Positions 534 through 31,602 of a stretch of 64,000 nt of DNA are shown in pieces. The notes under the pieces were generated by a model. The model saw nothing but the letters and a program-made list of their open reading frames with translations. It searched no databases and was not told where the DNA came from. This DNA is from Candidatus Doudnabacteria bacterium. GTDB taxonomy: Bacteria > Patescibacteriota > Doudnabacteria > UBA920 > O2-02-FULL-48-8. A program made the translations under genes and the position numbers. Position 1 is the stretch's first letter; every line of letters begins with the position of its first letter. The stretch covers positions 7,312 to 71,311 of the forward strand of contig JAHFJG010000007.1 in the NCBI GenBank assembly GCA_023246005.1, in the 5' to 3' direction.

Positions 534-566
534 GCCAGAGGCAGATCCGCCTCTGGCGGAAAATTG
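534..566. repeat. GC-rich palindromic mini-element, family R1 (CCAGAGGCAGATCCGCCTCTGGCGGAAAA); further copies at 6333-6360, 30930-30965 and 43598-43645
   Basis: Perfect hairpin CCAGAGGC/GCCTCTGG. The same core GGC(A/G)GATCC...TC(T/C)GGCGGAAAA recurs four times in the window. Confidence 0.6.
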
Positions 567-4744: not shown

Positions 4745-6814
4745 ATGTTTGACCTTACAATTCCAATTGAACAACTTTACTTGGTCGGTCCGGCGCGCGC
4801 CAAGTTGCTGAAAAACCTTGGCATCAAGACACTGGAAGACCTGCTTTTTTATTTTCCCCGCGCCCACAATGATCTGTCCAAGTTTACCTTGATTGCCGAT
4901 CTGAAACTTGGCGATAACGCCAATGTTAAAGCCAAAATTTTGGAAGTCAAAAGTTTCCGCACCAAGATCCGCAGATTTACTCTGACCCAGGCTTTGATCG
5001 AGGACGATACTGCGAGTATTCTTTGCGTTTGGTTTAACCAACCGTTTCTGACCAGAGTTTTGAAAAAAAATGAATACTTTATTTTTTCTGGCAAAGTCAC
5101 AATTAGCAAAAATAGGCTGCAGCTGCAAAACCCAGTTTATGAACAAGAACGGGACGAGCAGATTCATACTTCCCGCCTTGTTCCTCTCTATTCTCTAACT
5201 GCCAATCTAACCCAAAAACAATTGCGCTACATTATCAAAACTTATCTTGATAAAGTTACGATTCCTGAATATTTACCCAAAGATATTTTACAGAAAGAGA
5301 AGCTATTAAATGAAAATTACGCGGTCAAAACCTTCCACTTTCCTAAAGATTATTCGGCTCTAAATCAGGCGCAGAACCGTCTGGCATTTGATGAAATCTT
5401 CCAAACCCAGGTGCGTGTCCTGCAATATAAAAAAACGCGCGAGCAAAAAAATTCTTTCAAAATTAATGTTGATGTTGATTTAGCCGACAAAATAAAATCA
5501 CTCTCATTTGAATTAACAGCGGGACAAAAACAAGCCCTAGCTGAAATTATTAATGATTTTAAAAAGCCTTTCCCGGCCAATCGCCTGCTTGAAGGCGATG
5601 TCGGATCAGGCAAAACCATCATCGCCGCTCTGGCAGCTTATTTAATGGCTCAAAATGGCCTTCAGACTGCAATTCTGTCACCTACTGAAGTCTTGGCCAA
5701 TCAGCATTATTTCAACTTTTTAAAGCTGTTTGCCCGCGATAATTTTGATATAGCGCTTCTGACTTCTTCGCAAGCCCATTTTAACGGCAATCCTGCTACT
5801 CGCGCTACAGTTATTTCTCAAATTACATCGGGCAAAGCCAAAATTATTTTAGGCACCCACGCGCTGTTGGAAAAAGAAATTAAATTTGCCCAGCTTGGTT
5901 TGGTCATAATCGATGAGCAGCACCGCTTTGGCGTGCAACAACGCTCAATCCTGAAGCAAATCAGCAATGCCCATCTCCTGACCATGAGCGCCACTCCGAT
6001 CCCCCGCACTCTGGCTCTTACTTTGTACGGCGATTTGGATTTATCGCAACTAAAAGAGTTGCCGGCAGGCCGTCAGAAAATTTTAACGAAAATCGTGGCT
6101 GAAGAAAATCGAACCAAAGCTTACGAATTTATTGCCAAACAAATCGAATCCGGTAGACAGATATTTGTCATCTGTCCTCTCATTGATGACTCGGATAAAT
6201 TAGGAGTTAAATCAGCCACAGCTGAATTCAAAAAATTAGCCAACGAAATATTTCCACAATTCGAAGTTGGGCTTCTTCACGGTAAACTCAAAACCGCTGA
6301 AAAAGAAAAAACTATGCAGCAATTTTCCGCCAAAGGCGGATCCGCCTCCGGCGGAAAAGACTCCTATATCGACATTCTGGTGTCCACATCTGTGATCGAA
6401 GTTGGCGTGGATGTGCCCAATGCATCTGTCATGATGATTGAAGGCGCCCAGCGGTTTGGCCTGGCCCAGCTTCACCAGTTCCGCGGCCGCGTGGGCAGAA
6501 GTGACCATAAATCGTATTGTTTCCTATTTTCTGATGATCCAAACAGCATCAACAATCCTAGACTACAAGCTCTGGTGGAAAGCAATAATGGCTTTGATCT
6601 GGCGGAAAAAGATCTGCAAATCCGAGGAGCCGGCGATCTTTATGGCACCAAGCAATCAGGCTATGATTTTAAAATCGCCAGCCTGAACAATCTAGATTTA
6701 GTTGAGCGGTCCCGAAACTATGCTGAAAAACTTTTGGATCAAGATATTAACTTGAACAATTATCCCCTTTTGAAACAAAAAATGGATAGTCAACCCCTTG
6801 TGCATTTGGAATAA
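4745..6814 (+). CDS. recG: ATP-dependent DNA helicase RecG
   Basis: N-terminal wedge/OB region. Walker A DVGSGKT. DEQHRFGV. The C-terminal helicase motifs VIEVGVDVPNASVMMIEGAQRFGLAQLHQFRGRVGR closely match E. coli RecG. Confidence 0.9.
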   Translation: MFDLTIPIEQLYLVGPARAKLLKNLGIKTLEDLLFYFPRAHNDLSKFTLIADLKLGDNANVKAKILEVKSFRTKIRRFTLTQALIEDDTASILCVWFNQPFLTRVLKKNEYFIFSGKVTISKNRLQLQNPVYEQERDEQIHTSRLVPLYSLTANLTQKQLRYIIKTYLDKVTIPEYLPKDILQKEKLLNENYAVKTFHFPKDYSALNQAQNRLAFDEIFQTQVRVLQYKKTREQKNSFKINVDVDLADKIKSLSFELTAGQKQALAEIINDFKKPFPANRLLEGDVGSGKTIIAALAAYLMAQNGLQTAILSPTEVLANQHYFNFLKLFARDNFDIALLTSSQAHFNGNPATRATVISQITSGKAKIILGTHALLEKEIKFAQLGLVIIDEQHRFGVQQRSILKQISNAHLLTMSATPIPRTLALTLYGDLDLSQLKELPAGRQKILTKIVAEENRTKAYEFIAKQIESGRQIFVICPLIDDSDKLGVKSATAEFKKLANEIFPQFEVGLLHGKLKTAEKEKTMQQFSAKGGSASGGKDSYIDILVSTSVIEVGVDVPNASVMMIEGAQRFGLAQLHQFRGRVGRSDHKSYCFLFSDDPNSINNPRLQALVESNNGFDLAEKDLQIRGAGDLYGTKQSGYDFKIASLNNLDLVERSRNYAEKLLDQDINLNNYPLLKQKMDSQPLVHLE
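6333..6360 (+). repeat. R1 mini-element copy inside recG, in frame (encodes GGSASGGK)
   Basis: AAAGGCGGATCCGCCTCCGGCGGAAAAG. It coincides with ~10 extra residues relative to canonical RecG, between ...MQQF and ...VIEVGVD. Confidence 0.6.
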
Positions 6815-9646: not shown

Positions 9647-9973
9647 TTAATCTAAGTCATCGTAGAGATCACACCATTGTGGATTCGTAGATTCAATAAG
9701 TTTTATCTTATCTGCTCTAGATCCGGCCTTAATCTGCTTTTCTCTTGCTAAAGATGAATCAAAGTCATTATGAGCTTCATAATAGACCAGTTTCGTCAGG
9801 TTGTATTTTTTTGTAAAGCCTTCGACTAGTTTTTGCTTATGGGACCAAACTCTTGCTTTTAGTTCTGAGGAATAGCCTGTATATAGAGTCGTATTCGTAA
9901 AGTTAGTCATAATATAAACACAAAACACCTTTTCGTCTTGGTTAAGATTGCTTCGTCCCCTTTGGTAGTTCAT
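9647..9973 (-). CDS. GIY-YIG nuclease family protein (stand-alone, about 108 aa)
   Basis: VFCVYIMTNFTNTTLYTGYSSELKARVWSHK matches the GIY-YIG core. Confidence 0.75.
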   Translation of the reverse strand: MNYQRGRSNLNQDEKVFCVYIMTNFTNTTLYTGYSSELKARVWSHKQKLVEGFTKKYNLTKLVYYEAHNDFDSSLAREKQIKAGSRADKIKLIESTNPQWCDLYDDLD

Positions 9974-9994
9974 AAGCTCCTCGCAATGGAGAAA

Positions 9995-11881
9995 CTAATT
10001 CTCTGAACTCCCCTGCGCCTGCATTTCTTTTTTGGCTTCTTCAATTTCCAACGCTCGCTTTGGATCGGTTGTGATGATCTGATCTTCCATGTATGAAGCA
10101 ATTATCTTGATGGCCACGTGCTTGATCCCAGCAAAGAAAATTCCTTCCCCCACGTCTGATTCCAACAGCAAATATTTCTCGCCTTCAGTCAAAAAGAAAG
10201 TCTCGACTATCACATCAATCGCGGCTGGTGATTGCTTAAGCAGGAGCTGCAAAGACGAGTTGGTCACAATCGGTTTGCCATATGGAGATTGCAAAAAATC
10301 CGAAACGTCTTGGGTGACGGTCGTGACTCCCAAATAATATTTGCGCGCCCGCTTGGCAATGCCAAATAGAAATTTGGCCGAATCATCATGCTGCATCATC
10401 CACCACGCTTCGTCAATCACCAAAATTCTTTTTTTCAAAGTTGAACGGACTACGTTCCAGATATAATTTAAAGTCACATAAATAGCTATTGGGCGCAGAG
10501 CGTCTTCCAGATCTCGGATCGAAAATACGACTAACTGGTTATCCAAATTAATATTCGTGGTCTGGTTGAAAATTCCAGAAAAAGTCCCTTGCGTATACTT
10601 GGTCAAGCGTTGCGCCATGCTTTCTCCGCCAACCATGCCGGTTAAAATTTCTACCAAATCCTGCATAGTCGGCGGTTCGATATTGGTAAAATCAGAATTG
10701 GCAGTAATGTCTTTTTTGGCATAAGTTTCCCAAATCGCCCGATCCATAATCGCTTCTTCAGTGGGATCCAGTTTCCCAAGCATTAAATTCATCAGCCCCA
10801 ACAAATTAACGACTGCGGAACGTAAAATATCCTCTTTGCTTTCGCCTTCAATGCCTCTTGGCAAATCAAACGGATTAACGCGGGAATCGGAGTTCAAAGA
10901 AATATTCAAAAACGAACCGCCTACAGCATTGGAAAGATGCCGATATTCGTTTTCCGGATCTATGACAATCACATCAGTTCCCAACATTAAGGATCGCAGA
11001 ATCTCCAGCTTGACCGCATAACTTTTGCCCGAGCCTGACTTTGCAAACACGACTGAATTGGCGTTTTCCATCTGAAACCGATCAAACAAAATTAAGCTGT
11101 TATTATGCCGATTAATGCCGTATAAAATTCCGTCATTGGAAGTCAGTTCCGAAGATACAAACGGAAAAGTCGTAGACAAAGGCTGGGTATTCATGTTTGT
11201 GGCAATCGCCAACTCGTCATTGCCTAAAGGCAAGGTCGAGTTGAATCCTTGTTCCATCTGCAATATCGCCGGCTTGGCCACGATTAACTTGGACCCAAGC
11301 AAGGACTCGAGAGTTGCTGAAAATTGATCCAGCTCCTTTAAGTCGTCAGCGTATAAAGTAAAGTAGATGGAAAAACGAAAATATCGCTCGGTTCCTTGCT
11401 GCAGCCTGTTGCGCAATTCTTCCACATCCTGGAAAGCCGTTTCCATCATCGGATCTCTGACATTGCCTTTTTCCTGGCCAAGCCGCATGCTGGCTTCCAG
11501 CTGGCCGACTTTGCTCTTAAGCTTTTTCATAATTTCATCCGTCGCCATGGGGTAAATAAACATGGCCATATCAATTGGCGCATCCAAACTGATGATCGGA
11601 GCTAACCAGTCGACCGAAATAAATCGCGGATAGGACATGATGAAAAAAGACCGCGCCAACCTGCCTGATACCTCGACGGAATTTTGATTGACTCGAAAAG
11701 CTGATGGCGCAATTAAATCCCGCAGAGTATTTAACCCGCTTTTATATTCGCGTTCTTTCTTAACTATCTCACGCTGTAACTCGCGCTGCGGATCAGGTTG
11801 ATTATCGGAAAATAATGCCATATTATTCGCGATCCGAATGACCCGAATTTGCATCCGAATTATCCGAATCATAGTTCGCAT
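9995..11881 (-). CDS. VirB4/TrbE/CagE-family conjugal-transfer (type IV secretion) ATPase
   Basis: Walker A FAKSGSGKSYA. Walker B VLVIDEAWWMM. C-terminal VirB4-like region. The true start is probably the internal MALFSDN at about 11821. Confidence 0.85.
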   Translation of the reverse strand: MRTMIRIIRMQIRVIRIANNMALFSDNQPDPQRELQREIVKKEREYKSGLNTLRDLIAPSAFRVNQNSVEVSGRLARSFFIMSYPRFISVDWLAPIISLDAPIDMAMFIYPMATDEIMKKLKSKVGQLEASMRLGQEKGNVRDPMMETAFQDVEELRNRLQQGTERYFRFSIYFTLYADDLKELDQFSATLESLLGSKLIVAKPAILQMEQGFNSTLPLGNDELAIATNMNTQPLSTTFPFVSSELTSNDGILYGINRHNNSLILFDRFQMENANSVVFAKSGSGKSYAVKLEILRSLMLGTDVIVIDPENEYRHLSNAVGGSFLNISLNSDSRVNPFDLPRGIEGESKEDILRSAVVNLLGLMNLMLGKLDPTEEAIMDRAIWETYAKKDITANSDFTNIEPPTMQDLVEILTGMVGGESMAQRLTKYTQGTFSGIFNQTTNINLDNQLVVFSIRDLEDALRPIAIYVTLNYIWNVVRSTLKKRILVIDEAWWMMQHDDSAKFLFGIAKRARKYYLGVTTVTQDVSDFLQSPYGKPIVTNSSLQLLLKQSPAAIDVIVETFFLTEGEKYLLLESDVGEGIFFAGIKHVAIKIIASYMEDQIITTDPKRALEIEEAKKEMQAQGSSEN

Positions 11882-12245
11882 TAAGGACTCTTTTTGGCTT
11901 CAAAAATGCTGCTCTAAAATTTACTATTAGTCCGAGTTCTAAATTAGCGGCTTTGAGGTATCTTTGCATTTGGATATAATCTTCTTTCGTTATGACCCGT
12001 TTAGCCTTAAAATCTGTTAAAATTCTGCCAAAAATCAGGAAATCTACTCTGTTGCCTTCAGGGGAATCGCTCTGTAAATTCTTAAGCTCGTATTCTCTTT
12101 CAAATGGAATTTTTAGTTTTTTAAGTTTTTCTTCAAATTTATCTGCATATTGTCTTTCTCTAGCAAATCTTCCCAGCTCGTTATGTGTCTCAAAACAAAC
12201 CCCTGTTATTTTATATGATTCATCTGCGTATAATATTCGTGGCAT
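11823..12245 (-). CDS. GxxExxY-family protein (PD-(D/E)XK nuclease-like fold)
   Basis: ITGVCFETHNELG...E motif and size typical of the GxxExxY family. Flanked by inverted repeats (see findings). Confidence 0.5.
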   Translation of the reverse strand: MPRILYADESYKITGVCFETHNELGRFARERQYADKFEEKLKKLKIPFEREYELKNLQSDSPEGNRVDFLIFGRILTDFKAKRVITKEDYIQMQRYLKAANLELGLIVNFRAAFLKPKRVLNANYDSDNSDANSGHSDRE

Positions 12246-12263
12246 TCGGATGTCATTCGTGGA

Positions 12264-12959
12264 TTAGGATCGCAATATGTCCAAATCTTCTACGGATTTA
12301 ATTCTAATTGCCGAGGCTGTGTTTAAATTATAACTATTATACATAAGTTCGATCAGCTCCTCTGTGCTTAAAACCAGGGTTTTCAAGCCCATGGCTGAAA
12401 GTCCCGACACAATCTGATTAACTCGTTTGGACAGCTCTTCGCGGGCGTTTTCAAACTCCAGGCTTTTGCCGGCAATCTGTTTGGCCGGACTAAATAAATT
12501 TGTAACCTTTGACATAAAACCAGATTTGACTCCTGCTGTAGTTAATGGAACAACTACATAAAATGTCTTGTTCATTATGCTGGCAAATTCGATAAGCTTG
12601 CCGATGTATTCGATATATTCTTGCGTCTGCATACGCAGCAATTCGTTGGTTTGTTGTTGCATAATACTCCGCAGCTTGTCCAAATAAGCATGAATGTCGA
12701 GCTTCCTTGATTGCATGAGAATTTGGATGGGAAATTCAAGACCATTGAGAAAATTCTGATAAGCTGAAATTAGAGCGTTTTGTTCTTCCACGCTCTTTAA
12801 GGAAAAATTCGTGGAAGAAACTACCATCACCGTTCGCATGGACCCGTCCCGCATAATAATCGTTCCTTCTTTTATTTCATCAATGTCCAAATAAGCCTGC
12901 GTGCTGGCAGTTGGTTTATTATTGCCTATATTCGATTGCATTTCTTGCTTAGTAGACAT
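12264..12959 (-). CDS. hypothetical protein, T4SS-locus associated
   Basis: Intact ORF co-directional with virB4. No recognisable motif. Confidence 0.3.
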   Translation of the reverse strand: MSTKQEMQSNIGNNKPTASTQAYLDIDEIKEGTIIMRDGSMRTVMVVSSTNFSLKSVEEQNALISAYQNFLNGLEFPIQILMQSRKLDIHAYLDKLRSIMQQQTNELLRMQTQEYIEYIGKLIEFASIMNKTFYVVVPLTTAGVKSGFMSKVTNLFSPAKQIAGKSLEFENAREELSKRVNQIVSGLSAMGLKTLVLSTEELIELMYNSYNLNTASAIRIKSVEDLDILRS

Positions 12960-12986
12960 AGATCAGATAACAGTGAACAGTTAACA

Positions 12987-13352
12987 TTAACTCGTTTTAG
13001 CGCTTGGGACTTTAATTGTCCAGAGCATTGCCCCGATTTCATCCGCTAACTTTGATGATTGCAAATAATCTTCTTCAGTCATATAATTTTCCTTATAGGC
13101 AAATTCAAGAAGATATTTTGATTCTTGAAGAGAACCATAAGAGATATCAAAAAAATTCTGCTGTACTTTATCCCGAATGCGCGCATATCCTTCGATAAAA
13201 TTTAAAATAACCGACAAAGCAGATCTCCTTAACTGAGAAGTAACACCGTATAATTCATCTCTCGGAAAGCTTTTCGTAATTTTATAAACCAAATGAACAT
13301 AAATATCCATCTTTGCTCTTAGTTTATCAAAATATGATTCAGTCTGATGCAT
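12987..13352 (-). CDS. four-helix-bundle protein (23S rRNA intervening-sequence protein family; HEPN clan)
   Basis: Family-typical size (about 120 aa) and motifs (TSQLRRSALSVILNFIEGY...ES.YLL). Flanked by TCAGATAACAG inverted repeats. Confidence 0.8.
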   Translation of the reverse strand: MHQTESYFDKLRAKMDIYVHLVYKITKSFPRDELYGVTSQLRRSALSVILNFIEGYARIRDKVQQNFFDISYGSLQESKYLLEFAYKENYMTEEDYLQSSKLADEIGAMLWTIKVPSAKTS

Positions 13353-13363
13353 TTTGTTATCTG

Positions 13364-13807
13364 TTATCTGATATCTGTTTTCTGACGTATCAGTTCTTTC
13401 TCTTCTTCTGTTTTCTGGTCAAGCAAATATGCTAACTTTTTCAGTCTGCTCTGATCCGGTTCCTCGATGCGCCCTATTTTTGCTGGAGCTGGTTTAGCTT
13501 TTTGGGTTCTAACAACAATATCAACTTCTTCGCGTTTAAAAATCCTAACCTGCGGCTTGGAAAAAAAGCTGACAAATGCCCCTAGGTAAGCAAACATAGG
13601 CCGGCCATTAAATTTCGCAAACCCCACGGCAACGCCGATCAAGGTTACTGGTAGAGCAAATAAGAAAAAGAACACTGAAAACTTCAATAATGAGTAAAAA
13701 AACAAATCAACTCCGCCAGTGGCCAATAAAAACAAAAACTGCTTGAGAGTCAGAGGACCGATTAGTTTATCCTCAATGTCAGTGAATTGCGGTACGGCAA
13801 ATTGCAT
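13364..13807 (-). CDS. PrgI-like small membrane protein (2 TM), putative T4SS component
   Basis: Two hydrophobic helices and a charged C-terminus, adjacent to virB4 and virB6-like genes. Call rests on size and context only. Confidence 0.35.
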   Translation of the reverse strand: MQFAVPQFTDIEDKLIGPLTLKQFLFLLATGGVDLFFYSLLKFSVFFFLFALPVTLIGVAVGFAKFNGRPMFAYLGAFVSFFSKPQVRIFKREEVDIVVRTQKAKPAPAKIGRIEEPDQSRLKKLAYLLDQKTEEEKELIRQKTDIR

Positions 13808-13842
13808 GTTGCAAAGTAAAAAGTTAAAGGTAAAAAATAAAA

Positions 13843-14256
13843 CTAATCGTTATTCTTAAGGGAAACTATGCTAGCGCCTAGTATTTTTGATAATTCTTCA
13901 GCTTCGAGCAACAATTCTTTTGCTTTGTTAGGTTCAGCTTTAGCTGAATCAATCATTAAATTAAGCCAAAATTTTGTTTCGTTCGCAGATTTTAGAGCAT
14001 ATAAGTAAAAATTGATAAAATCCTTTCTGCTGCTAGCAGCTATGGCTTCAATTATATTGGCACCAATGCTTGTTCCACAACGCAATAGCTGTCGAGCCAG
14101 AATCTGAACATTAAAGTCCTTTTTGTCTAAAGTATCAATAAATACTATAACTTCTAGGGCAAATTTATAGCTTCTCGATTTAATGTCTATTTTTATTTTA
14201 GAGTTAGTTTCAGACATTTGCAGTAACTTTTCCACAATAACTATAACATAAAACAA
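13843..14256 (-). CDS. four-helix-bundle protein (23S-IVS protein family); probable true start at ATG 14217
   Basis: SIGANIIEAIAASSRKDF...ALKSANETKFWL, a family-typical motif. The listed start is TTG. Confidence 0.75.
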   Translation of the reverse strand: MFYVIVIVEKLLQMSETNSKIKIDIKSRSYKFALEVIVFIDTLDKKDFNVQILARQLLRCGTSIGANIIEAIAASSRKDFINFYLYALKSANETKFWLNLMIDSAKAEPNKAKELLLEAEELSKILGASIVSLKNND

Positions 14257-14314
14257 TCAAATTACCAAAAAGCCAGGGCGGCTTCCCAGGCTTTTACTTT
14301 TGACTTTTTACCTT

Positions 14315-14755
14315 TTACTTCATGAAAGCTTTTATCCACTTCATCCAGCCCTCTCCTTCATCCTCGTAATTATTCCAAAATTCTTCCGGCCTGACTATTT
14401 TTGTGCCTTGGAATTTTTCAAGCTTAAGAAGATGTTGATCAGAAGTAATCAAATAATCAGCATTGCAAGTAACGGCTGATTCTAAAATTTTATTGTCCTC
14501 GTCATCCTCAACAACGTGCAAAGATTCGCCTGGGCCAATCTGGCTGACCATTTCAAAAAAATATTCCAGTTTTTTGAGATAACCTTCATCATTAATTTTC
14601 TTCTGGGCTAAGAATTTATTTTCTCGCAAAGTGCCTTTGTTGGCATAAGCCTCAACTTGTCTGGCAATAACTAAATCTATGATCCTGTTAGCATAACTGT
14701 GATCATCATTTGATGCGTCTATTAAAGCATTGGTGTCAATCACGACTTTGAGCAT
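14315..14755 (-). CDS. PIN-domain protein (VapC-like putative toxin); no adjacent canonical antitoxin ORF
   Basis: N-terminal VVIDTNALID plus conserved acidic residues downstream (ITSDQHLL). Confidence 0.7.
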   Translation of the reverse strand: MLKVVIDTNALIDASNDDHSYANRIIDLVIARQVEAYANKGTLRENKFLAQKKINDEGYLKKLEYFFEMVSQIGPGESLHVVEDDEDNKILESAVTCNADYLITSDQHLLKLEKFQGTKIVRPEEFWNNYEDEGEGWMKWIKAFMK

Positions 14756-14792
14756 AAAAAGGTTGTAGGTTATAGTTGGTAGGTTGTAGTTA
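14756..14792. repeat. left arm of a ~35-bp inverted repeat bracketing the 4HB gene 14790-15152
   Basis: AAAAAGGTTGTAGGTTATAGTTGGTAGGTTGTAGTTA. Reverse complement of 15226-15260 begins with the same 14 bp AAAAGGTTGTAGGT and shares GGTAGGTTGTAG. Confidence 0.6.
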
Positions 14793-15152
14793 GGACTTAT
14801 CTAATTCTTGGGTCATCTTATTAAGCATGCGCATTATTTCATCCAAAAGATCAACCACGATCAAACTTTTGGCATCATTCCCAAAACCAAGCTTTTTAGA
14901 AATTATCAACTGAGTTTCTAATTCTGCGCCGGATCCATAAGCTGTGAATAAAAAATGACGGTAATCTTTTTTAGTTCCACGCTTACTACCTTCAGCAATA
15001 TTTGACGGGATCGAAACCGCACATCTACGCATTTGGGAAGTCAAACCAAATTGTTCTTCTCGAGGAAAATCTTTTGTTAATCCATAGACTGCAACCACCA
15101 GGTCTAGGGATTTTTGCCAAACAATGAGATCCTTATAAGATGATAAACTCAT
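14790..15152 (-). CDS. four-helix-bundle protein (23S-IVS protein family)
   Basis: Classic motif KDLIVWQKSLDLVVAVYGLTKDFPREEQFGLTSQMRRCAVSIPSNIAEG. Confidence 0.85.
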   Translation of the reverse strand: MSLSSYKDLIVWQKSLDLVVAVYGLTKDFPREEQFGLTSQMRRCAVSIPSNIAEGSKRGTKKDYRHFLFTAYGSGAELETQLIISKKLGFGNDAKSLIVVDLLDEIMRMLNKMTQELDKS

Positions 15153-15225
15153 ATATTATTAATTAATAATACTGAAGTACTTTAGCATTATCCTGAATAA
15201 AAATAAACCCCATGAGGAGGTCTAT

Positions 15226-15260
15226 TCTACAACCTATAACCTACCACCTACAACCTTTTA
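15226..15260. repeat. right arm of the inverted repeat bracketing the 4HB gene 14790-15152
   Basis: TCTACAACCTATAACCTACCACCTACAACCTTTTA. It abuts the stop codon of the upstream gene. Confidence 0.6.
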
Positions 15261-16730
15261 TAGTCTTTCAATTTCCTTACGAAGGTCTGCGATTGCTTCA
15301 AATTCTTGCAGCGTCAAATCGCTGCCGGCTTTGTTCGCGGCATTTTTGAACACCACTGTTCTATCAGCATTATTATCATGAATCATGGCAGAGCCAATTT
15401 GCAGATAAATCTTAAACAATGGGCTTTGTTCAAAGGCATTAACGACATAATACGGCAACAGCCGGTTGGCTTGCGCCAGATAAATGATTCGAGATTGGAG
15501 ATTCGAGATTTGAGCTTGCAAAGTTCCCGCGCGCAGATAGCTTAAATCAACTTTTTTCAAATCATCAACGATTTGAATATCATTTAATGATTTCGAAGGA
15601 GTCAATTTGACTGAAGCGGGCCTGTAATAATTCTCCGGTGCGACTGAAGACGGCAGAAACTTTGTAGGTAAAGGAACGGGCTTTGAGATCCGCAATCCTG
15701 AATTCATTTCAGGATCTCTTTTTTGAGATACTGAAACCCCTGAACTTGATTCAGGGTCAGCATTGCGAGGCGGAGAAACCAATTCCGGAGTTTTCACTTC
15801 ACGCTTAATTTCTTCCGGCGTCATCTTCACAAGCGTTTGTTTGCTGCTATCTGATATCTGTTTACTGATCCCTGTTTCCCCCATTTGCCGCCGCAAAACT
15901 TCCAGGTCTTGGCCGTGAGAAGGAGTTGGTGGTCTGGGAGGAGTTCGTGGTCGTGGGGCAACTGGTATATTCTGATTTTTAACAACTTGCTGGAAATCTA
16001 CTGTTGCTTCTTCAAAGGCTGTTCCGTATTTGAGCCAATCATAAAGCTCTAGAATAATAAGCAACAACTTTCGATCGGTATTGGACAACTTCCGGACAGT
16101 TTGGTTCTGATTTATGTACGTAATCCTTTCTATAGCTCCTCTTGTTTCGAGTATAGGTCCTGCTTTTCTTGTGTTTCGATCATAATCCAATAACCAGTTG
16201 CCTATTGAGGGTGGGACATTTTTATCTGCTATTGTTAGGGGATTACTACCAACTGTAACAAAACTCCTAAGCATGATATTAGCCAATGACTCGGCAATCG
16301 CTCCTTCTTCTCTAACGTCATCATAAACATTTAAAACATCCTGAAACTTTTCTTGGATTGGTATTTTGGCCTTTATTGCATCTGTCAGATGGTTCTTGAT
16401 CAAATTTTCTATTTCTGCAAAGGGCCTTGAGGACAAACATTCAAATTTCAACAGGACTATCAATTTCTGATATTTTTCGTACAGCTCCGGGGACTCAGTT
16501 TTCAGTTCTGGGTATTTGCCAATCAATATGTCTTCCAAAAGCATCCGAGCTTTCAAGGCCTCTTCCCGGTTATCAAACTCAATGCTTCCTTCAACTATTT
16601 GCTTGAACTGCTCAAAAACCTCCGGATATGCTAACTGCTTTCTGTCCGTGATGAAAGACAATGGTGTTGTATTACCAACCACAGCGGAGTTAGATGTTGT
16701 GCTTTGCTGAATTAGAGTTTCGTCTGGCAT
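15258..16730 (-). CDS. hypothetical protein (490 aa, Pro-rich linker), T4SS-locus associated
   Basis: Intact ORF between the 4HB gene and the VirB6-like gene. PRPRTPPRPPTP linker. No recognisable catalytic motif. Confidence 0.3.
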   Translation of the reverse strand: MPDETLIQQSTTSNSAVVGNTTPLSFITDRKQLAYPEVFEQFKQIVEGSIEFDNREEALKARMLLEDILIGKYPELKTESPELYEKYQKLIVLLKFECLSSRPFAEIENLIKNHLTDAIKAKIPIQEKFQDVLNVYDDVREEGAIAESLANIMLRSFVTVGSNPLTIADKNVPPSIGNWLLDYDRNTRKAGPILETRGAIERITYINQNQTVRKLSNTDRKLLLIILELYDWLKYGTAFEEATVDFQQVVKNQNIPVAPRPRTPPRPPTPSHGQDLEVLRRQMGETGISKQISDSSKQTLVKMTPEEIKREVKTPELVSPPRNADPESSSGVSVSQKRDPEMNSGLRISKPVPLPTKFLPSSVAPENYYRPASVKLTPSKSLNDIQIVDDLKKVDLSYLRAGTLQAQISNLQSRIIYLAQANRLLPYYVVNAFEQSPLFKIYLQIGSAMIHDNNADRTVVFKNAANKAGSDLTLQEFEAIADLRKEIERL

Positions 16731-16736
16731 ATTTTT

Positions 16737-19640
16737 TTATTTTGCATGTATATAGGCTCGTTTCTCTTTTCCTGCGGAATCTTTTTCGTCAGGAATATAG
16801 CCAGAAGGCCTCCAGCTCATGTCTTCCGGTCTTGTGTCTGGAGCCGGCGCGCCAGACCCGCTAAAATGCTTGAATGCCGCATCTAATTTTGAATCTCCTG
16901 AAGCATCGGCTAATTTTGTTCTTCCAAAATCAATCAAGGCGCTCATAGTTTCTCTATACTCTTTCTGCACTTTAGGATCTTGAATCAAATTAGCCGCCTC
17001 AAATATACGTTTCACATTCTGCGGCTTAGCCGCATTCATGGCTTGGTTCGCATTCATTTCATTTCTATTCACCCGGTTTTTGATAGCCTGATAATTAGTC
17101 ATATAATAGGTCAAACCAACTTCGTTGATGATCGAATCTCTTTTACCGCTAACGCCATAATCAGCAGCAGGAACTTCGTCGTAGAATATCAAACGGTTAC
17201 CTTCTCTCGTCAGCTTGGAGTCGTCTAGTTTAGCGTTCTCAGCAGCCTGTTCATTTTTTCGATCCTGTGCACTCTTCATCTCCAGACGGCCGTGTTTCGA
17301 TTCGTACATACGCATAATCGTCCTGTGTCCGCGTTTCTCAGCCAGATCACTGACATCACTCATGATTAGCATAGAACCTTGTTCACCCATGCCTAACTTC
17401 TCTTCCAAAATTTGTTTTCTGAAATCATCCATGCCTTCTGCCGAATAAGTCATGAATTCTCCAGCTTTATGTTGCTTTCCGTCAGCACCGATCATGTCTC
17501 TAGTATATTGGGTTTTATTTACCAATTCGTTATCATTATACGTGTCTGTCAGGTGCATAAGAATTGCGTTTGCCCGAGCTTGTTTACCCTCTTCTACGGC
17601 GCTATTAAATAAATCCACTAACTCATGCCAGTTATCAGTAAGAATATTTTTCTTCTCCTCATCCATGGCATGCCGGATCTTTTTCTGGGTAAAGTAATCG
17701 TCTGGATACATCAATGATTGTCCCTTCAACTCTGTCGCCCTTGCTCGGGCGAGTATCTGTTCTCTTGACTCCGTACCAAATGCTTTTTCTGCTTCATCGG
17801 CTTGGTCCAAAAGAGCTTGGGCTTTGACGCGCTTATCGGTTATTGCCAGATCCTTAGCTGCTTTTCCGTTTACATCAATAGCTGGCAGGGCTGCCTTTTC
17901 TCTCTCCAATTGCCTTGCTTCTTCTAGAGCTTGTTGTGCTTGCTTACGCAACTCCAATGGTGCATTCGCCTTTGTTTTTAATTCTTCCGCATCATGTAAT
18001 AATTCTCTTCCAGTTTCCGATCCACCGCCACGAGCTTTTTTTATCCCGCCCTTACCAAAATACCGCTGAAAAAAAGTAACTGGCGAAGCAAGGGCAGAGC
18101 CTTTTTCATATGCTTTGGTCATTCCCGCAGTTTCTCTAGCCGCTCTATTAATCTCCCGGGATTCTTTCCAACCCTCAATCCATTTCGCAGGTCGAATTTC
18201 TCTGCCGGTTCTTGCCTTATAGACCTCCGCCCCATAATTGGCTCCAGCCTTGACTCCTGCCCAAGCCCCTTTCTTCATCAAATTCTTGGCTCCACTGACC
18301 CCGCTCATTATCATATCCCCCCCCACCATCCCCGCTTGCTTGGCCACCAATACCGCGGCTGCCAAAAATGCTATTTCAATAAAGTAAATAAATGCAGTGC
18401 CATTTCCTTGGCCATTCTTCCAACCTGTCCAACTAAATCCATCTGATATAACTAAAGTATCTAATCTAATCATAAACAAAGCCACTGGCGCCCAAATCAA
18501 ATATTTAAGAAAGTGACTCCACCATTCTTCTGCGTATTTTTTGGTCGCCGGCAGAATATTTGCCACATAAGCAATAGGTGAAAAAATAATCAAAATGTAC
18601 AAACCCACAAGCCGGATAATAAACATTCCAGCCAGAGCTATAAATACAACTGCAGATACAAGCTGATAAAAGATTTTTCCTAAACTTAAAACAAGAGCTG
18701 TTGATGATCCTCCTGTAACGATAAGTCTAAAATCTTCCGCAGGCCAAGCCTGAGCGAAAGCCGTAGAAGCAATCTGTTTTCCCATTCCATCTTGATAAAA
18801 CACCGCGGCCAAAAAATTCACGGCATTCATGATAGTAACTGCGATAACTTGACTAAAGTTAACTAAAAGAGCCGCTATTATTAAATCTCTGAGCAAGTGG
18901 CCATATTCTTGATAATTTTTCAATCGTAAAATTACACCAAAGCCAATGACTATTAATGCCAAAATAAAAAACATATTACAGATATCGCGGACGACCATCC
19001 AGCCAATATTAACCGCTCTTGGCAAAGTCGTAATATTGATTATATTCCCCACAACTTCGCTGAAAATACTACCGGCAATAGAAGTCACAATTGCCAATAC
19101 TGCTGAAATAATTGAAGCTACGAAATCTAAAATCCATCCAATCACTTGACTGATAACATTAGCGGGGTCTTGAAATTTTTTCATATCAGCTGCTGCTTCA
19201 GCTATTCCTGTTTGATTTATTCCAGTTCCATTGACTATTGACGCTCTAACTGCTTGCATCTCAATCGGTATTTTTGTAATATCTTGAGTTGATGAAATGC
19301 CATCTGATAGAACTGGCCAGCTACCTGGCGCAGTTTCACAATAAGGTTCAGGTATTCCGCCTGTAGCAATTAATCCCCAAACTGCTCTGTACTTTTTCTG
19401 AGAGGCCTGTAATAATTTATCGCTCAATGCTTTACAGCCTGCTTCATTGGTTGCATTATCATAATCAGCTTTAGTAATAGTTACATTTGTTGTTGGCGCT
19501 GGCGTGGGAGCCGGGGCTGGAGCTGGAGTTTGCCCAAACGCAAAATTGGCAAGCAGAAGATTGGCCAGTAGAATTGCTGTTAAAATTTTGGTTATGCGGT
19601 TGAATTTTTGTTTTGGTTTCACTTTTGGAAAATTAGTCAA
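16737..19640 (-). CDS. VirB6/TrbL-like polytopic membrane protein with long hydrophilic C-terminal region
   Basis: Signal peptide plus PAPAPAPTPAPTT linker, at least 6 TM helices in the central part, and a long charged coiled-coil C-terminus, next to virB4. No searches run. Confidence 0.45.
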   Translation of the reverse strand: MTNFPKVKPKQKFNRITKILTAILLANLLLANFAFGQTPAPAPAPTPAPTTNVTITKADYDNATNEAGCKALSDKLLQASQKKYRAVWGLIATGGIPEPYCETAPGSWPVLSDGISSTQDITKIPIEMQAVRASIVNGTGINQTGIAEAAADMKKFQDPANVISQVIGWILDFVASIISAVLAIVTSIAGSIFSEVVGNIINITTLPRAVNIGWMVVRDICNMFFILALIVIGFGVILRLKNYQEYGHLLRDLIIAALLVNFSQVIAVTIMNAVNFLAAVFYQDGMGKQIASTAFAQAWPAEDFRLIVTGGSSTALVLSLGKIFYQLVSAVVFIALAGMFIIRLVGLYILIIFSPIAYVANILPATKKYAEEWWSHFLKYLIWAPVALFMIRLDTLVISDGFSWTGWKNGQGNGTAFIYFIEIAFLAAAVLVAKQAGMVGGDMIMSGVSGAKNLMKKGAWAGVKAGANYGAEVYKARTGREIRPAKWIEGWKESREINRAARETAGMTKAYEKGSALASPVTFFQRYFGKGGIKKARGGGSETGRELLHDAEELKTKANAPLELRKQAQQALEEARQLEREKAALPAIDVNGKAAKDLAITDKRVKAQALLDQADEAEKAFGTESREQILARARATELKGQSLMYPDDYFTQKKIRHAMDEEKKNILTDNWHELVDLFNSAVEEGKQARANAILMHLTDTYNDNELVNKTQYTRDMIGADGKQHKAGEFMTYSAEGMDDFRKQILEEKLGMGEQGSMLIMSDVSDLAEKRGHRTIMRMYESKHGRLEMKSAQDRKNEQAAENAKLDDSKLTREGNRLIFYDEVPAADYGVSGKRDSIINEVGLTYYMTNYQAIKNRVNRNEMNANQAMNAAKPQNVKRIFEAANLIQDPKVQKEYRETMSALIDFGRTKLADASGDSKLDAAFKHFSGSGAPAPDTRPEDMSWRPSGYIPDEKDSAGKEKRAYIHAK

Positions 19641-19669
19641 AAGGTAAAGGGTTACGATGCCCGGGTCGT

Positions 19670-20080
19670 TTAGGGGTTACGATTAGGGTTCTTAAACTTA
19701 CTCCATGCAGAGCCTAGGTTATAGAGCTGCCGACCTGTTTTATCATATATATCGACTAGTTCGGTGACTAAGGCAGGATTTATATCATAAATATCACGAC
19801 ATTGTTCAAGACTTACTATTGTTTCATTGCATTCTGCCATCGCATCATCGATATATTTTTGAAAACCTAGTTTTTGATGTCTTTTAGCATAACCTTCCGC
19901 AATTAATCTCGGGGATGCTTTACAAGAACGTCTCAATTGATCCTTTAGATCATACTTTTCTTCTTGAGGAATCTTGGGCAGAATTTCTTTCATTACCCGC
20001 AGCATTGCAGCGTAACTATTCTGATATACTTCTAGGTCTCGAAAGCTTTTAATTGGTTTCTTGTTTTCATCGTTGTTCAT
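19670..20080 (-). CDS. four-helix-bundle protein (23S-IVS protein family; HEPN clan)
   Basis: FRDLEVYQNSYAAMLRV...LKDQLRRSCKASPRLIAEGY, family-typical. Flanked by repeated palindromic motif ACGATGCCCGGGTCGT. Confidence 0.75.
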   Translation of the reverse strand: MNNDENKKPIKSFRDLEVYQNSYAAMLRVMKEILPKIPQEEKYDLKDQLRRSCKASPRLIAEGYAKRHQKLGFQKYIDDAMAECNETIVSLEQCRDIYDINPALVTELVDIYDKTGRQLYNLGSAWSKFKNPNRNP

Positions 20081-20257
20081 GACGTTACCTTTGACCGCCT
20101 TACGATACGGGCCTCGTTGCCGCTTTGAATTCGTTAATGGTTTAATGGTTATGATGCCCGGGTCGTCTAAAGGTGACGTCGAGGGCCTAAAAAACCGTTA
20201 CCTCTCAACTCCTCACCATACGGGCCTCGTTACCTCTTAACGCTAACCGATTTATAC

Positions 20258-20584
20258 TTAAATAACTTGTCTCTGTCCATAAAAAACTATTAGATCTTTC
20301 ATGACATCCTCTTTGATATACGGACTAACAGAAGCTTCAGTCAATAGATCGACTTTACTGTTTAGTCGTTCTGACAATTTTCTTTGTAAAGCGACTAAAT
20401 CCAGTAAACTTTTTTGCTTCTGCTGAGCATATCTAATAAGCAAGTCGATATCGCTCTCTTCCTTGGCTTCACCGCGAGCATACGAGCCAAAAACACCCGC
20501 AAACTCAACGTCATTGCTTTGAAGTATCGGGATGACTTTAGTTTTTAATTCATCAATTGTGGTTTTCATGAGTTCATTATGCAA
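20258..20584 (-). CDS. nucleotidyltransferase (MNT/antitoxin-type minimal NTase)
   Basis: GVFGSYARGEAKEESDIDLLI (the GSxxRGx...DxD NTase motif). Likely ATG start at 20569; the listed start is TTG. Confidence 0.75.
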   Translation of the reverse strand: MHNELMKTTIDELKTKVIPILQSNDVEFAGVFGSYARGEAKEESDIDLLIRYAQQKQKSLLDLVALQRKLSERLNSKVDLLTEASVSPYIKEDVMKDLIVFYGQRQVI

Positions 20585-20587
20585 TTT

Positions 20588-20698
20588 TTAGGACTTTTTG
20601 TCTATTGGAACAAACGCAAAATTGGCAATCAAAAGATTGGCCAGCAGAATCAGGGCTATTATTTTAACTATTTTATTCTGGGAAATCAGGCTTGACAT
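20588..20698 (-). pseudogene. orphan 36-aa ORF encoding only a signal peptide, paralogous to the VirB6-like N-terminus (R5 repeat)
   Basis: MSSLISQNKIVKIIALILLANLLIANFAFVPIDKKS* against the VirB6-like N-terminus ...ITKILTAILLANLLLANFAFGQ. Nucleotide repeat AAACGCAAAATTGGCAA.CA.AAGATTGGCCAG.AGAAT. Confidence 0.5.
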
Positions 20699-20761
20699 GA
20701 TTCTATGAATATGATAAGATGTAAATAGTTTACAGAACTGGCCCGAAAGAGCCGGGTTTTT

Positions 20762-21298
20762 TTATTTAAAGCCAATGTCGCCCCTAGGTTTTTCTTCAAA
20801 TGCCAACAGCTTTTTGATGGCCTGGAATACGACTTTAAATTGCTGATCATATTTCTTTTCTAATTTTTCTATCTTTTCTCGCAACTCTCTATTTGTCGCC
20901 AACATTTCCCTTATCTTGGTAAACGTTCTCATTATCTGGATATTTACCTGTACTGCTCGTTTGCTGTGTAGAACGCTGGACAGCATAGCCACTCCATGTT
21001 CAGTAAACACCAAAGGCGCTTTGCGTAATCCCATCTTTTCGCGATTGGAAGTGCCAAATTGGAACTTCCAAATTTCCATTTCTTTTTTACTCATTTGAAA
21101 CATAAAGTCATCAGGAAACCTGTCTAGATTGCGCCTGACCGCGCGGTTAAGTATTTTGGTTTCTACTTGATAAAGTTCAGCTAGATCCTTGTCAATCATC
21201 ACTTTTTTGCCACGAATAAAATAAATTTTACTTTCTAATCTTTTTTCAGGTAAAACAATTTTATAATTTTCTTTATTCATATGTTTCCGCAAAAGCAA
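20762..21298 (-). CDS. ORF6N/KilA-N-like domain protein (phage antirepressor-type DNA-binding domain)
   Basis: FIRGKKVMIDKDLAELYQVETKILNRAVRRNLDRFPDDFMFQMS matches the ORF6N family. Probable ATG start at 21280. Confidence 0.65.
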   Translation of the reverse strand: MLLRKHMNKENYKIVLPEKRLESKIYFIRGKKVMIDKDLAELYQVETKILNRAVRRNLDRFPDDFMFQMSKKEMEIWKFQFGTSNREKMGLRKAPLVFTEHGVAMLSSVLHSKRAVQVNIQIMRTFTKIREMLATNRELREKIEKLEKKYDQQFKVVFQAIKKLLAFEEKPRGDIGFK

Positions 21299-27843: not shown

Positions 27844-29121
27844 ATGATTCAAAATTCAGATCAGCGTTCTTCTGTCTCTTTCTTCAAAAAACTTTCGGAA
27901 ATTTGGAAAACAAACAGCAAATTCACAATCCATCCTTTCAAATCCCTGCACTCACGACACCTTCTGCCTCTGTCCGTTCCTGACTATGCCGCGCGTTTTA
28001 GTTTTGAACTTGTCATATTGACAATCGCAATCTTCGCAGTAATCGTAAATTTTTCTCTTAATAATCACGCTAACCACATCTCCTCTTCTGATCAAAGCGT
28101 GATTTTTTCATTTTTAAAAAATAATCCAAACCTCAATCGCAACCTTTTAACAAATTCCGACACAACCACTATTCTTGCTCAAACCGACCAATTAATTGCC
28201 AAAGCTCAAGCTCAATCAACATTGGGAGTGGTGCTCACTTCAACTCAAATTCTAAACTCAAGACCTAACCCGACTACCATTCAAGAAGATGTAATTTTGA
28301 AAACCAATCCGGCTGATACCCAAAATACTAATCGACAAGGACTGACCAAATATGATGTTGCTCCAGGCGATACCATTACTGGCATTGCTTCAAGTTTCGG
28401 CATTTCGCCCCAAACAATCATGATGGAAAATAAGCTGAATGAAAACACAGTCTTGAAGCCAGGACAAGAACTGACCATCCTGCCGACCACAGGCATTACC
28501 TACACGCTCAAACCAAGTGACACGCTGGAATCAATTTTGAACAAATACAAAATTTCTGAAAATGATTTTCTTGATGCTAACAACATTGAATCATTCAATG
28601 ACTTGGATATCGGCAGTATTGTCGTCATCCCAATGCAGAATGTAAGTTTGCCCCAGGCGCCAAAGCCCCGATCTAAATTCGTTCTTGATGAAACTAACAA
28701 AGTAGCCTTGAAACAAGCTCTGGCGCCGGATAATCTGATTACAGGCCCAATTAGTTTTATTTGGCCAACTTCAGTTAAAAGCATTACTCAAGGATTTTCT
28801 CGCCGCCATTCTGGCATAGACATCTCTGACAGTAAAATGGAGCCAATTTACGCAGCAGCCGACGGTTTTGTCGAGATTTCAGGATATCAGGCCAATGGTT
28901 ACGGCAATACCATAGTCATTAACCATGGTGGCGGGTTTAAGACGCGTTATGGGCATGCTTCCGAGCTTTATGTCCAAGCCGGAGATTTCGTCAAAGCTGG
29001 CCAGCTGATTGCCAAACAAGGCCGCACAGGACGCGTCCGTGGAGCGACTGGAATTCACTTGCATTTTGAAATCATAAAAAATGGGATACATGTTAACCCC
29101 CTGGAATACGTCAAGCCATAA
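27844..29121 (+). CDS. LysM-domain M23 family metallopeptidase (peptidoglycan endopeptidase)
   Basis: Two LysM-like segments (YDVAPGDTITGIASSFG..., YTLKPSDTLESILNKYKIS...). M23 motifs HSGIDI...GYGNTIVINHGGGFKTRYGH...HLHFEI. Confidence 0.8.
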   Translation: MIQNSDQRSSVSFFKKLSEIWKTNSKFTIHPFKSLHSRHLLPLSVPDYAARFSFELVILTIAIFAVIVNFSLNNHANHISSSDQSVIFSFLKNNPNLNRNLLTNSDTTTILAQTDQLIAKAQAQSTLGVVLTSTQILNSRPNPTTIQEDVILKTNPADTQNTNRQGLTKYDVAPGDTITGIASSFGISPQTIMMENKLNENTVLKPGQELTILPTTGITYTLKPSDTLESILNKYKISENDFLDANNIESFNDLDIGSIVVIPMQNVSLPQAPKPRSKFVLDETNKVALKQALAPDNLITGPISFIWPTSVKSITQGFSRRHSGIDISDSKMEPIYAAADGFVEISGYQANGYGNTIVINHGGGFKTRYGHASELYVQAGDFVKAGQLIAKQGRTGRVRGATGIHLHFEIIKNGIHVNPLEYVKP

Positions 29122-29222
29122 ATCAGATAACAGTTAACAGTAAACAGATAACAGAAAACAAACCCAACATCGCATTGCTGGGTTTTATGTTATCTGATAT
29201 CTGATTTTTGTTATCTGACTCT
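29122..29222. terminator. extended imperfect palindrome with central terminator-like hairpin in a convergent gene junction; carries CAGATAACAG / CTGTTATCTG motif copies
   Basis: ATCAGATAACAGTTAACAGTAAACAGATAACAG...AACCCAACatcgcattGCTGGGTT...TGTTATCTGATATCTGATTTTTGTTATCTG. Confidence 0.5.
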
Positions 29223-31027: not shown

Positions 31028-31602
31028 CAGATTGAAATTAAGAATAATTCGGATTTAATGTTTCGCTCTAAAATATACTCAATAAACTTATTGATGGTAT
31101 GATGATTAAGCTGATCAACATCCTTCGGGATTTTAAAACCTAAGATCTCAAGTAATTCTACACAGAAGGAGTCCAGTAATCTAAAATACTGTTCCGAGTA
31201 ATTCTGACGGTCAAGGTTATAAAAAAAATCTGTCAATAAATTATAAGCCTCCGGATTCGGATGTTCGTCTGCTGTCATCTTCAGCATCAATTCTGCGGCA
31301 TAAAACGCAATCGCGGTTTTTTTAAGGTCTGTACGCAAGCTATTGAATTGCCGTACAGGCTTGGCTCCAATCAATGTTGGCAAATGCTTGCCAGCCAGAT
31401 ACAGTTCAACTTGGGCCAAATCCTGACACGCGTAATTAAGCTTGCTGGCCGGCTTGCGCAATGATTTGGCTAAAATGCGGACTTTGCCAGCTTCTTGGGT
31501 CCAGCAGCTAACTATTTGATCGGCTTCCCTGTAGTTTTGTTTCTTGAGGATTATGCCTGTGAGTTTTTTGTATTTCATCGTAAAATTTCTAACGGGATTC
31601 AT
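31027..31602 (-). CDS. recO: DNA repair protein RecO-like
   Basis: N-terminal OB-fold region KLTGIILKKQNYREADQIVSCWTQEAGKVRILAKSLRKPASKL. Length and context fit. Start overlaps the ileS stop. Confidence 0.55.
   Translation of the reverse strand: MNPVRNFTMKYKKLTGIILKKQNYREADQIVSCWTQEAGKVRILAKSLRKPASKLNYACQDLAQVELYLAGKHLPTLIGAKPVRQFNSLRTDLKKTAIAFYAAELMLKMTADEHPNPEAYNLLTDFFYNLDRQNYSEQYFRLLDSFCVELLEILGFKIPKDVDQLNHHTINKFIEYILERNIKSELFLISI

Follow-up and report, generated by a model that had tools for sequence, protein, structure and literature searches.

Why does a GC-rich palindrome recur along an AT-rich stretch of bacterial genome, and why does it lie inside genes as well as between them? The question is raised by 64,000 nucleotides (nt) of a Candidatus Doudnabacteria genome (contig JAHFJG010000007.1, positions 7,312 to 71,311; this whole stretch is referred to below as the window), in which an initial annotation had reported four copies of a palindromic repeat, at 534–566, 6333–6360, 30930–30965 and 43598–43645. 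A direct check of the sequence confirmed all four, which form GC-rich islands because the G+C content of the window is only ~0.38–0.50. In our reading, to which we assign a probability of about 0.8, each repeat represents a miniature insertion element that is non-autonomous. The block is added precisely, without target-site duplication, at T-rich/A-rich junctions, the copies surviving in genes are almost all those in the Ser-Ala-x-Gly-Gly frame, and copies in spacers decay.

When up to three mismatches are allowed, the 21-mer GGATCCGCCTCYGGCGGAAAA has four matches in the window, compared with 0.01 expected from shuffled sequences, and a repeat search within the window pairs 534–566 with 6320–6352 (33 nt, 91% complementary) and 30918–30964 with 43592–43638 (47 nt, 89% identical). 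The underlying unit is a GC-rich hairpin of 15 nt, TCCGCC-NRA-GGCGGA, with a 6-bp stem and a 3-nt loop; searched as TCCGCC-NNN-GGCGGA with at most one mismatch, it is found at six window sites (0.08 expected), two of which are single units absent from the initial annotation. Most often the element is present as a 30-nt inverted doublet, that is, a unit followed by its own reverse complement, with GGATCC at the centre. In Doudnabacteria there is also a subfamily of 51 nt, one half of which encloses another small hairpin; these long copies consist of the doublet plus 21 bases that hold CCTGCC-GGCCG-GGCAGG in the second half. Searches of 1.08 Mb of loci and of viral contigs never turned up the inner hairpin alone.

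Two of the window copies share the convergent intergenic spacer 503–814 (312 nt). The doublet at 531–560, which corresponds to the reported 534–566 copy, begins 29 nt past the stop codon of the open reading frame (ORF) 23–502 and has a decayed left half (CATGCCAGAGGCAGA), in which one base pair has changed from C:G to T:A with compensation, and a perfect right half (TCCGCCTCTGGCGGA) followed by AAA; as DNA it forms a hairpin of -11 kcal/mol (z -3.8). The second, at 632–646, is a solo unit, TCCGCC-GGA-GGCGGA, with a fold z of -3.1. Neither resembles an intrinsic terminator, and a terminator scan called nothing at the first of the two. The copy at 6326–6355 on the plus strand is a perfect doublet (TCCGCC AAA GGCGGA TCCGCC TCC GGCGGA; -15.1 kcal/mol, z -5.1) within recG (4745–6814, plus strand), where it is read in frame as ...MQQF-SAKGGSASGG-KDSYIDILVSTSVIEVG... 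in a protein of 689 residues, the typical orthologue having 679. On the minus strand, the 51-nt copy at 30923–30973 lies at a TGG/AAG junction near the 5' end of a gene (29225–31027) for a DUF11-domain membrane or surface protein of 600 residues, and its translation, ...PTGW-SAEGGSLPAGQAGVSGG-KKFFKNPK..., falls in the N-terminal tail ahead of a predicted transmembrane helix. Also on the minus strand, the arginyl-tRNA synthetase (ArgRS) gene (37246–38925) carries a solo unit at 38074–38088, in the sense direction TCCGCC GTA GGCGGA, at a CTG/GAA junction, which encodes the SAVGG of ...IVNL-SAVGG-EDTKNLG.... A possible half-unit remnant (TTTTCCGCCAG on the plus strand) in a hairpin-rich spacer, at 35846–35856 on the minus strand, can be assigned with low confidence. 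As single-stranded DNA, the short copies are well folded (-7 to -15 kcal/mol, z -3 to -5); the two long window copies, both partly decayed, fold no better than shuffled sequence. At gathering thresholds, Rfam recognises only a tmRNA and three tRNAs in the window and nothing at the repeats. Derivation of the GGCGG..CCGCC arrangement from a tRNA T-arm was considered and dropped for lack of a real match, and an involvement of DraI- or BamHI-type restriction was set aside as a pure coincidence of sites.

The last long-form copy, at 43597–43641 on the minus strand, has a truncated first half and is non-coding, because the GGS..GGK frame runs into a TAA and the frame of the long ORF offers no start codon before 43537. 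It lies 55–90 nt upstream of a gene for a GH114/SH3 surface protein of 1295 residues (39650–43537, minus strand) and, since a promoter-like site is present just upstream of it (43736–43708, minus strand), it is probably part of the 5' untranslated region. The initial annotation had placed three copies inside or at the 5' end of coding sequence, two of them at the N-termini of large surface-protein genes; this holds for the recG copy and, as an N-terminal insertion, for the DUF11 copy, but not for 43597–43641. Its statement that the repeat always translates as GGS..GGK is a trivial consequence of the identity of the DNA, real translation in that frame being limited to the copies in recG and DUF11.

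Evidence that the blocks were inserted comes from the orthologues of their host genes, most of which, for recG, DUF11 and ArgRS alike, do not carry the element. The names of the nearest RecG homologues place the organism among Candidatus Doudnabacteria of the Candidate Phyla Radiation. Among 112 full-length RecG orthologues, the usual protein has 679 residues and reads ...MQQF-KDN.L.ILVSTSV... at the relevant place, with no block, and SA.GGSA.GG blocks, including the long form GGSLPAGQAGASGG, occur sporadically at five positions (approximately residues 120, 330, 379, 515 and 527 in reference numbering). In a codon alignment of eight Doudnabacteria recG genes (DNA of seven orthologues), the difference in length between filled and empty alleles is exactly 30 nt, or 51 nt for the long form, at four of the five positions, and the additional DNA starts with TCCGCC, ends with GGCGGA and duplicates none of the flanking sequence. 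The junctions are AAT^AAA, TTY^AAA, TTA^AAG and TTY^AAA; the window copy itself corresponds to an exact 30-nt alignment gap between TTT (6323–6325) and AAA (6356–6358), and the junctions within window genes are TTT/AAA, TGG/AAG and CTG/GAA. Synonymous positions in the stems are invariant, while neighbouring codons vary. At RecG position 120, all four filled proteins have empty proteins as their nearest relatives, and two proteins that are 96% identical outside their inserts (P0038 and P0026) differ by the presence or absence of one block. SAVGG is missing from the 60 ArgRS orthologues listed and the motif was found nowhere else among the 116 scanned, and all 97 DUF11 orthologues are without the 17 residues and read ...GW-KRFFKNKK....

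Inserts of other kinds were seen in the same protein families. Three ArgRS proteins (P0129, P0149 and P0151) have a different insert of 18 residues (e.g. SASAKSYGGSAKALREGG) at the exact SAVGG site, which could be a longer, related version or another element altogether. Short lineage-specific inserts in RecG proteins P0007 and P0019 (near residue 480) and P0026 (residue 527), namely AAQEGRASLSEAER, AAPEGRASPIFDGR and GGQELARAEPEHHALGSASGG, could stem from additional GC-rich elements or from variants shifted in frame.

The element is not confined to this genome. When one genome for each GTDB species was scanned for exact matches to the pattern TCCGCCNNNGGCGGATCCGCCNNNGGCGGA (24 specified bases), at least 119 loci emerged in species-representative genomes of many phyla, the titles of all 80 records among the matches listed being those of metagenome-assembled genomes. 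About half of these titles belong to the Candidate Phyla Radiation (CPR), with Kaiser-, Doudna-, Lipton-, Moran-, Campbell-, Terry-, Giovannoni-, Davies-, Falkow-, Portnoy-, Magasanik- and Saccharibacteria. The labels of the others, assigned by third parties, are Omnitrophota, Kiritimatiellae, Lentisphaerae, Verrucomicrobiota, Planctomycetales, Ignavibacteria, Bacteroidota, Chloroflexota/Dehalococcoidia, Firestonebacteria, Desulfotomaculaceae, Deltaproteobacteria and 'Gammaproteobacteria'. As several of the matches sit on contigs of 0.7–1.6 Mb, mis-binning cannot explain this spread. Doudnabacteria loci carry about one unit per 10 kb, with none at all in some of them. BLAST between loci found flank similarity almost only within one genome, with three weak or unexplained cross-locus matches; because the flanks are unrelated between genomes, it is the 30-nt core that constitutes the repeated entity. 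In a Kiritimatiellae metagenome-assembled genome the palindrome lies inside a composite repeat of ~185 nt, present in at least three copies of 97–100% identity (L005 4569–4752, L005 6390–6572 and L050 ~7325), which holds more hairpins that translate as ...HSERSEESRRERSLRLRSGQAL.... No description of the element was found in the full-text literature when it was searched for the DNA core, for its three peptide read-outs and for palindromic or in-frame elements in CPR and Omnitrophota.

Flanks and loops were analysed in 123 copies. Upstream, T is present at positions -3, -2 and -1 in 59, 82 and 61% of copies, and downstream, A at +1, +2 and +3 in 62, 78 and 61% (background 27% in both cases), which gives an insertion-site consensus of TTY^AAA; these bases reflect a target preference and are not part of the insert, because they are already present in empty alleles. 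The loops are polar, the first being RRA-like (AGA, AAA, GGA, GAA, CAA, CGA and others) and the second TYY, an order kept in 121 of 123 copies and almost never reversed, so that the element has to be described as a unit followed by its reverse complement. The third loop base, which the search pattern left free, is nearly always A, and exactly complementary loops were counted in 23 copies (16 expected). A minority of units are truly solo, and most of those that look solo are halves of decayed doublets. In nine decayed halves that stand beside a perfect half, seven base pairs are compensated (for instance in TTCGCC...GGCGAA, CCCGCC...GGCGGG and CATGCC...GGCAGA), compared with 0.65 expected and with none of 5000 permutations reaching seven, in a small sample in which some variants recur as subfamilies. 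The compensatory changes indicate that propagating variants keep each 15-nt half self-complementary, and on this sequence evidence a fold into two hairpins is favoured over a single long hairpin.

What does an insertion do to the gene that receives it? The lengths of 15, 30 and 51 nt are multiples of three and the consensus is free of stop codons in all six frames, so that an insertion within a gene adds 5, 10 or 17 residues, with SA.GGSA.GG, PP.ADPP.AE and R.RRIRL.RK as the three read-outs. When 125 copies were placed, 46 were well inside long ORFs (at least 37% of copies in ORFs), 25 near or upstream of starts, five near the 3' ends of ORFs and 49 in non-coding sequence or short ORFs. Among the 46 internal copies, 42 use the SA.GGSA.GG frame (p = 3e-16 for an expectation of one third); the phase of T/AAA-type targets in window genes predicts only 47–55% in this frame, and the excess persists against a proportion of 0.5 (p = 2.6e-9). 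It reflects selection on the peptide, and hence an insert that is translated and neither spliced out nor bypassed, with peptides such as FSAKGGSASGGK as the expected products; ribosomal bypass and removal at the RNA level are contradicted by the same bias. An AlphaFold2 model of the window RecG (65-sequence alignment, mean pLDDT 83) places the insert in a loop between helix 517–531 and strand 544–547, with residues 532–539 the stretch of lowest confidence, and positions ~120, 330 and 515 are likewise between secondary-structure elements in this model. At the sites examined, copies sit in loops or N-terminal tails, and the insert adds a short flexible Ser/Ala/Gly loop to its host protein.

Several other accounts of the repeats have to be weighed against insertion. 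A vertically inherited Gly/Ser linker with a function of its own, the likeness in DNA being a by-product of codon usage, is what one would propose from the translated copies, all of which read SA.GGSA.GG(K). It is very improbable, and the orthologue comparisons exclude it: most RecG orthologues lack the residues, as do all or nearly all of the ArgRS and DUF11 orthologues examined, this DNA also turns up outside coding sequence and in other reading frames, and synonymous stem positions are invariant beside variable flanking codons. The result expected of a conserved peptide, absence of the element from other genomes together with relatives that share the residues, is the reverse of what was found. 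Even smaller is the probability of a technical artefact such as a library palindrome, a chimeric join or contamination. The matches with titles do all come from metagenome-assembled genomes, but identical RecG and ArgRS proteins occur in ENA assemblies made independently from one population, the matches derive from MEGAHIT, SPAdes-type and further assemblies, including the long contigs mentioned above, and an artefact would explain neither the frame bias and loop location nor the loop variation and decay among copies.

More probable than these, and still unlikely, is a motif selected by the host, in other words not selfish: an mRNA-stabilising hairpin like those of repetitive extragenic palindromes, a place where a nucleoid or repair protein binds, or an uptake signal for DNA in naturally competent CPR bacteria, spread by recombination and retained through selection. 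The compensatory maintenance of the hairpin, the identity of the core across phyla and the many copies in spacers and near the 5' ends of genes would suit such a motif. However, copies occur at loop positions of unrelated genes whose orthologues mostly have none, and they decay; the order TTT-hairpin-AAA is opposite to that of a terminator, and the scan called no such site. One copy per ~10 kb is also a low density for uptake sequences, which arise by point mutation, whereas here precise 30-nt additions are seen. Somewhat less probable again is the proposal of the initial annotation that the palindrome is a target of stand-alone GIY-YIG nucleases, or, more broadly, that GIY-YIG or other small nuclease-like proteins recognise or cleave it or serve as its mobiliser. 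The window does encode GIY-YIG (9647–9973), PDDEXK_3 and PIN_3 proteins, and in a few loci (L002, L093) a GIY-YIG or 23S_rRNA_IVP gene is ~0.2–1 kb from the element. Yet the palindrome is itself the inserted DNA and is absent from empty alleles, which leaves no pre-existing homing target, and GIY-YIG genes are not enriched: they occur in five of the 119 element loci listed (843 kb), about one per 170 kb, against about one per 60 kb in Doudnabacteria loci generally. A tblastn search with the GIY-YIG, 23S_rRNA_IVP, PDDEXK_3 and PIN_3 proteins of the window gave matches in eight of the 119 loci listed, again without enrichment.

For the miniature insertion element, the mechanism that we prefer, tentative and rather doubtful, can be drawn by analogy. 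Each half would fold into a hairpin in single-stranded DNA, and an enzyme supplied in trans would recognise it, acting like the TnpA transposases of the IS200/IS605 insertion sequences (IS) or like the RAYT transposases (REP-associated tyrosine transposases) on the hairpins of repetitive extragenic palindromes (REPs) and their doublets (REPINs); REPINs are moved by RAYT transposases (PMC3116915). The hairpins, the doublet and the lack of duplication fit trans-mobilisation, whereas the constraint on both flanks, the missing GTAG/CGTC head (PMC3733652) and the intragenic copies do not. A number of observations weigh against the element as a whole. Both flanks are constrained (TTT and AAA), and IS200/IS605 elements need a one-sided target. 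Pfam detects no transposase or integrase in the window, the precomputed Pfam tables of seven Doudnabacteria loci show neither, and a regular expression for the IS200/IS605 TnpA motif found nothing, a crude test and hence a weak negative. No neighbouring gene recurs, the largest family being present in four of 119 loci (all-against-all clustering of 1,699 ORFs, matches listed), and those recurrent-family representatives that were recognisable are housekeeping genes. A vector was not found either, as the pattern occurs in two of 2.9 million viral contigs, has no match in 72,556 plasmids and has only a chance-level match in phage records. REP-type repeats are lineage-specific, and for them a near-identical core shared between phyla is unusual; no event of active transposition or excision was seen. 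Lastly, insertions recur at one site in distant orthologues (RecG residue 527 and the ArgRS site); our reading of this is site preference combined with the tolerance of loops, but loss or recombination could have the same result.

How does the element compare with described systems? REPs and REPINs share with it short, GC-rich, imperfect palindromes of ~20–40 nt that are dispersed in many copies, an inverted doublet able to fold as one long hairpin or as two, a presumably non-autonomous nature and no expected target duplication. However, REPs are extragenic and lineage-specific, have a GTAG or CGTC head and lie beside a RAYT gene (PMC3116915; PMC3733652), whereas here 46 of 125 copies are in long ORFs and three of the six window copies are in genes, TCCG...CGGA ends are flanked by TTT/AAA, the doublet is only 30 nt long and lacks a spacer, and one core is common to many phyla. 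No RAYT (Y1 transposase) gene was found in the window, in the seven Doudnabacteria loci or near the 119 loci listed. The suggestion of a REP- or MITE-like mini-element that tolerates in-frame insertion is supported by orthologues without the residues, by several insertion sites per gene and by the many genomes that carry it. It is no MITE (miniature inverted-repeat transposable element) in the strict sense: target-site duplications, sought in filled and empty alleles, are lacking, and no terminal inverted repeats enclose a body of 50–500 bp, because the whole element is the 30-nt palindrome. Nor was a parent IS found in the loci listed or by flank comparison. Elements derived from IS200/IS605 and associated with palindromes resemble it in their hairpin ends, the absence of target duplication and a short specific target alongside; they have guide sequences outside the hairpins and a one-sided target, in contrast to an element that ends at the feet of its hairpins and has both flanks constrained.

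Translated, in-frame insertion into ORFs recalls the Rickettsia palindromic elements (RPE), reportedly described by Ogata et al. in 2000 as palindromic selfish DNA lying in frame in protein genes. RPEs, ten times larger at ~100–150 bp and known from Rickettsia and relatives, add a surface peptide compatible with protein function; the present element is set apart, by description, by its 15–51 nt and by hosts in CPR, Omnitrophota, the Planctomycetes-Verrucomicrobia-Chlamydiae (PVC) group, Ignavibacteria and others. The small dispersed repeats (SDR) of cyanobacteria, said to have been described by Elhai et al. in 2008 as 21–27 nt long with hairpin potential, are similarly small, show nested insertions and are accompanied by short tandem 'word' repeats, but differ in sequence and taxa from a 15-nt unit with strict 3n length, in-frame gene insertions and a cross-phylum range. 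GC clusters of yeast mitochondria and the 'byp' elements of Magnusiomyces are likewise short GC-rich palindromes that have spread through AT-rich genomes, coding regions included. Both are organellar, and byps are skipped by the ribosome, unlike the insert described here, which, judging from its frame bias, is translated. Homing-endonuclease targets differ in that here the empty alleles lack the palindrome and GIY-YIG genes occur in only the five loci noted, intrinsic terminators in that the downstream flank is A-rich on both strands and is not a T run, and DNA uptake sequences, which occur at ~1 per kb, are lineage-specific and arise by substitution, in that this element is ten-fold sparser, crosses phyla and arrives as a block. 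The element is a variant among the small palindromic mobile repeats of REPIN, RPE and SDR-like type. A bolder proposal, which we regard as possible rather than probable, is that the 15-nt hairpin, mainly as the 30-nt doublet, ranks among the smallest mobile DNAs, spreading horizontally among phyla that are far apart and largely uncultivated (CPR, Omnitrophota, PVC-group, Ignavibacteria and Chloroflexota) by means of an as yet unrecognised hairpin-specific machinery that would paste it into TTY^AAA without duplication and, as a by-product, generate flexible-loop insertions in essential proteins throughout the genome.

The window contains further features of note. A second family of mini-hairpins, ATCCTGAA-N5-TTCAGGAT and CCCTGAA-N5-TTCAGGG, is present at 15695–15715 and 15738–15756, within ORF 15258–16730 (minus strand), and at 35788–35808 and 35819–35839 in a spacer, where it adjoins the hairpin ATTCCGAAC-cga-GTTCGGAAT. 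Within the ORF these hairpins read ...ADPESSSGVSVSQKRDPEMNSGLRIS..., a segment missing from the syntenic orthologues in L125, L127, L128 and L131, so that in-frame insertion in this genome may not be limited to one hairpin family. Small genes that may be selfish are scattered through a type IV secretion-like cluster (9647–21298; VirB4/TraC-like, PrgI, TrbL). They comprise the GIY-YIG gene already mentioned, PDDEXK_3 (11823–12245), four 23S_rRNA_IVP genes (12987–13352, 13843–14256, 14790–15152 and 19670–20080), PIN_3 (14315–14755), NTP_transf_2 (20258–20584) and ORF6N (20762–21298); syntenic Doudnabacteria loci have other subsets of small genes at other spots of the cluster. Spacers hold quasi-periodic 'word' repeats, heptamer-like and of two types, GTTATCT and GGTTGTA (13353–13385, 15836–15882 and 29118–29218; 14757–14789 and 15227–15259), one inverted pair bracketing a 23S_rRNA_IVP gene exactly, and similar words flank many intergenic palindromes in other phyla (e.g. 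L036, L059, L061 and L117). The isoleucyl-tRNA synthetase (31602–35057, minus strand; class I tRNA-synt_1 and anticodon-binding domain) has a complete histidine-phosphatase domain (His_Phos_1, residues 521–683, E = 1e-33) inside its catalytic domain. In the GH114/SH3 gene, GC-rich imperfect 12-nt tandem repeats (40217–41844) and a 285-nt duplication of 85% identity account for the local G+C peak of 0.50, and this gene lies between smpB (39160–39609) and, ~4.3 kb from it, the tmRNA gene (43937–44319, tag ANSLVSKIKNAFAFSPALAVA).

If the insertion reading is true, SA.GGSA.GG inserts and spurious PP.ADPP.AE or R.RRIRL.RK peptides are footprints of one DNA element and not features of the lineages that carry them, a point of practical relevance when proteins of CPR and other candidate phyla are annotated, aligned or used in phylogenomics. 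The small size, precise insertion without duplication and cross-phylum core point to a mechanism and a route of spread that described systems do not account for in full. The filled alleles serve as natural experiments on the question of which loops in RecG, ArgRS, PheRS and other essential enzymes tolerate 5–17 extra residues, and the element could serve as a marker of gene flow among co-occurring ultra-small bacteria.

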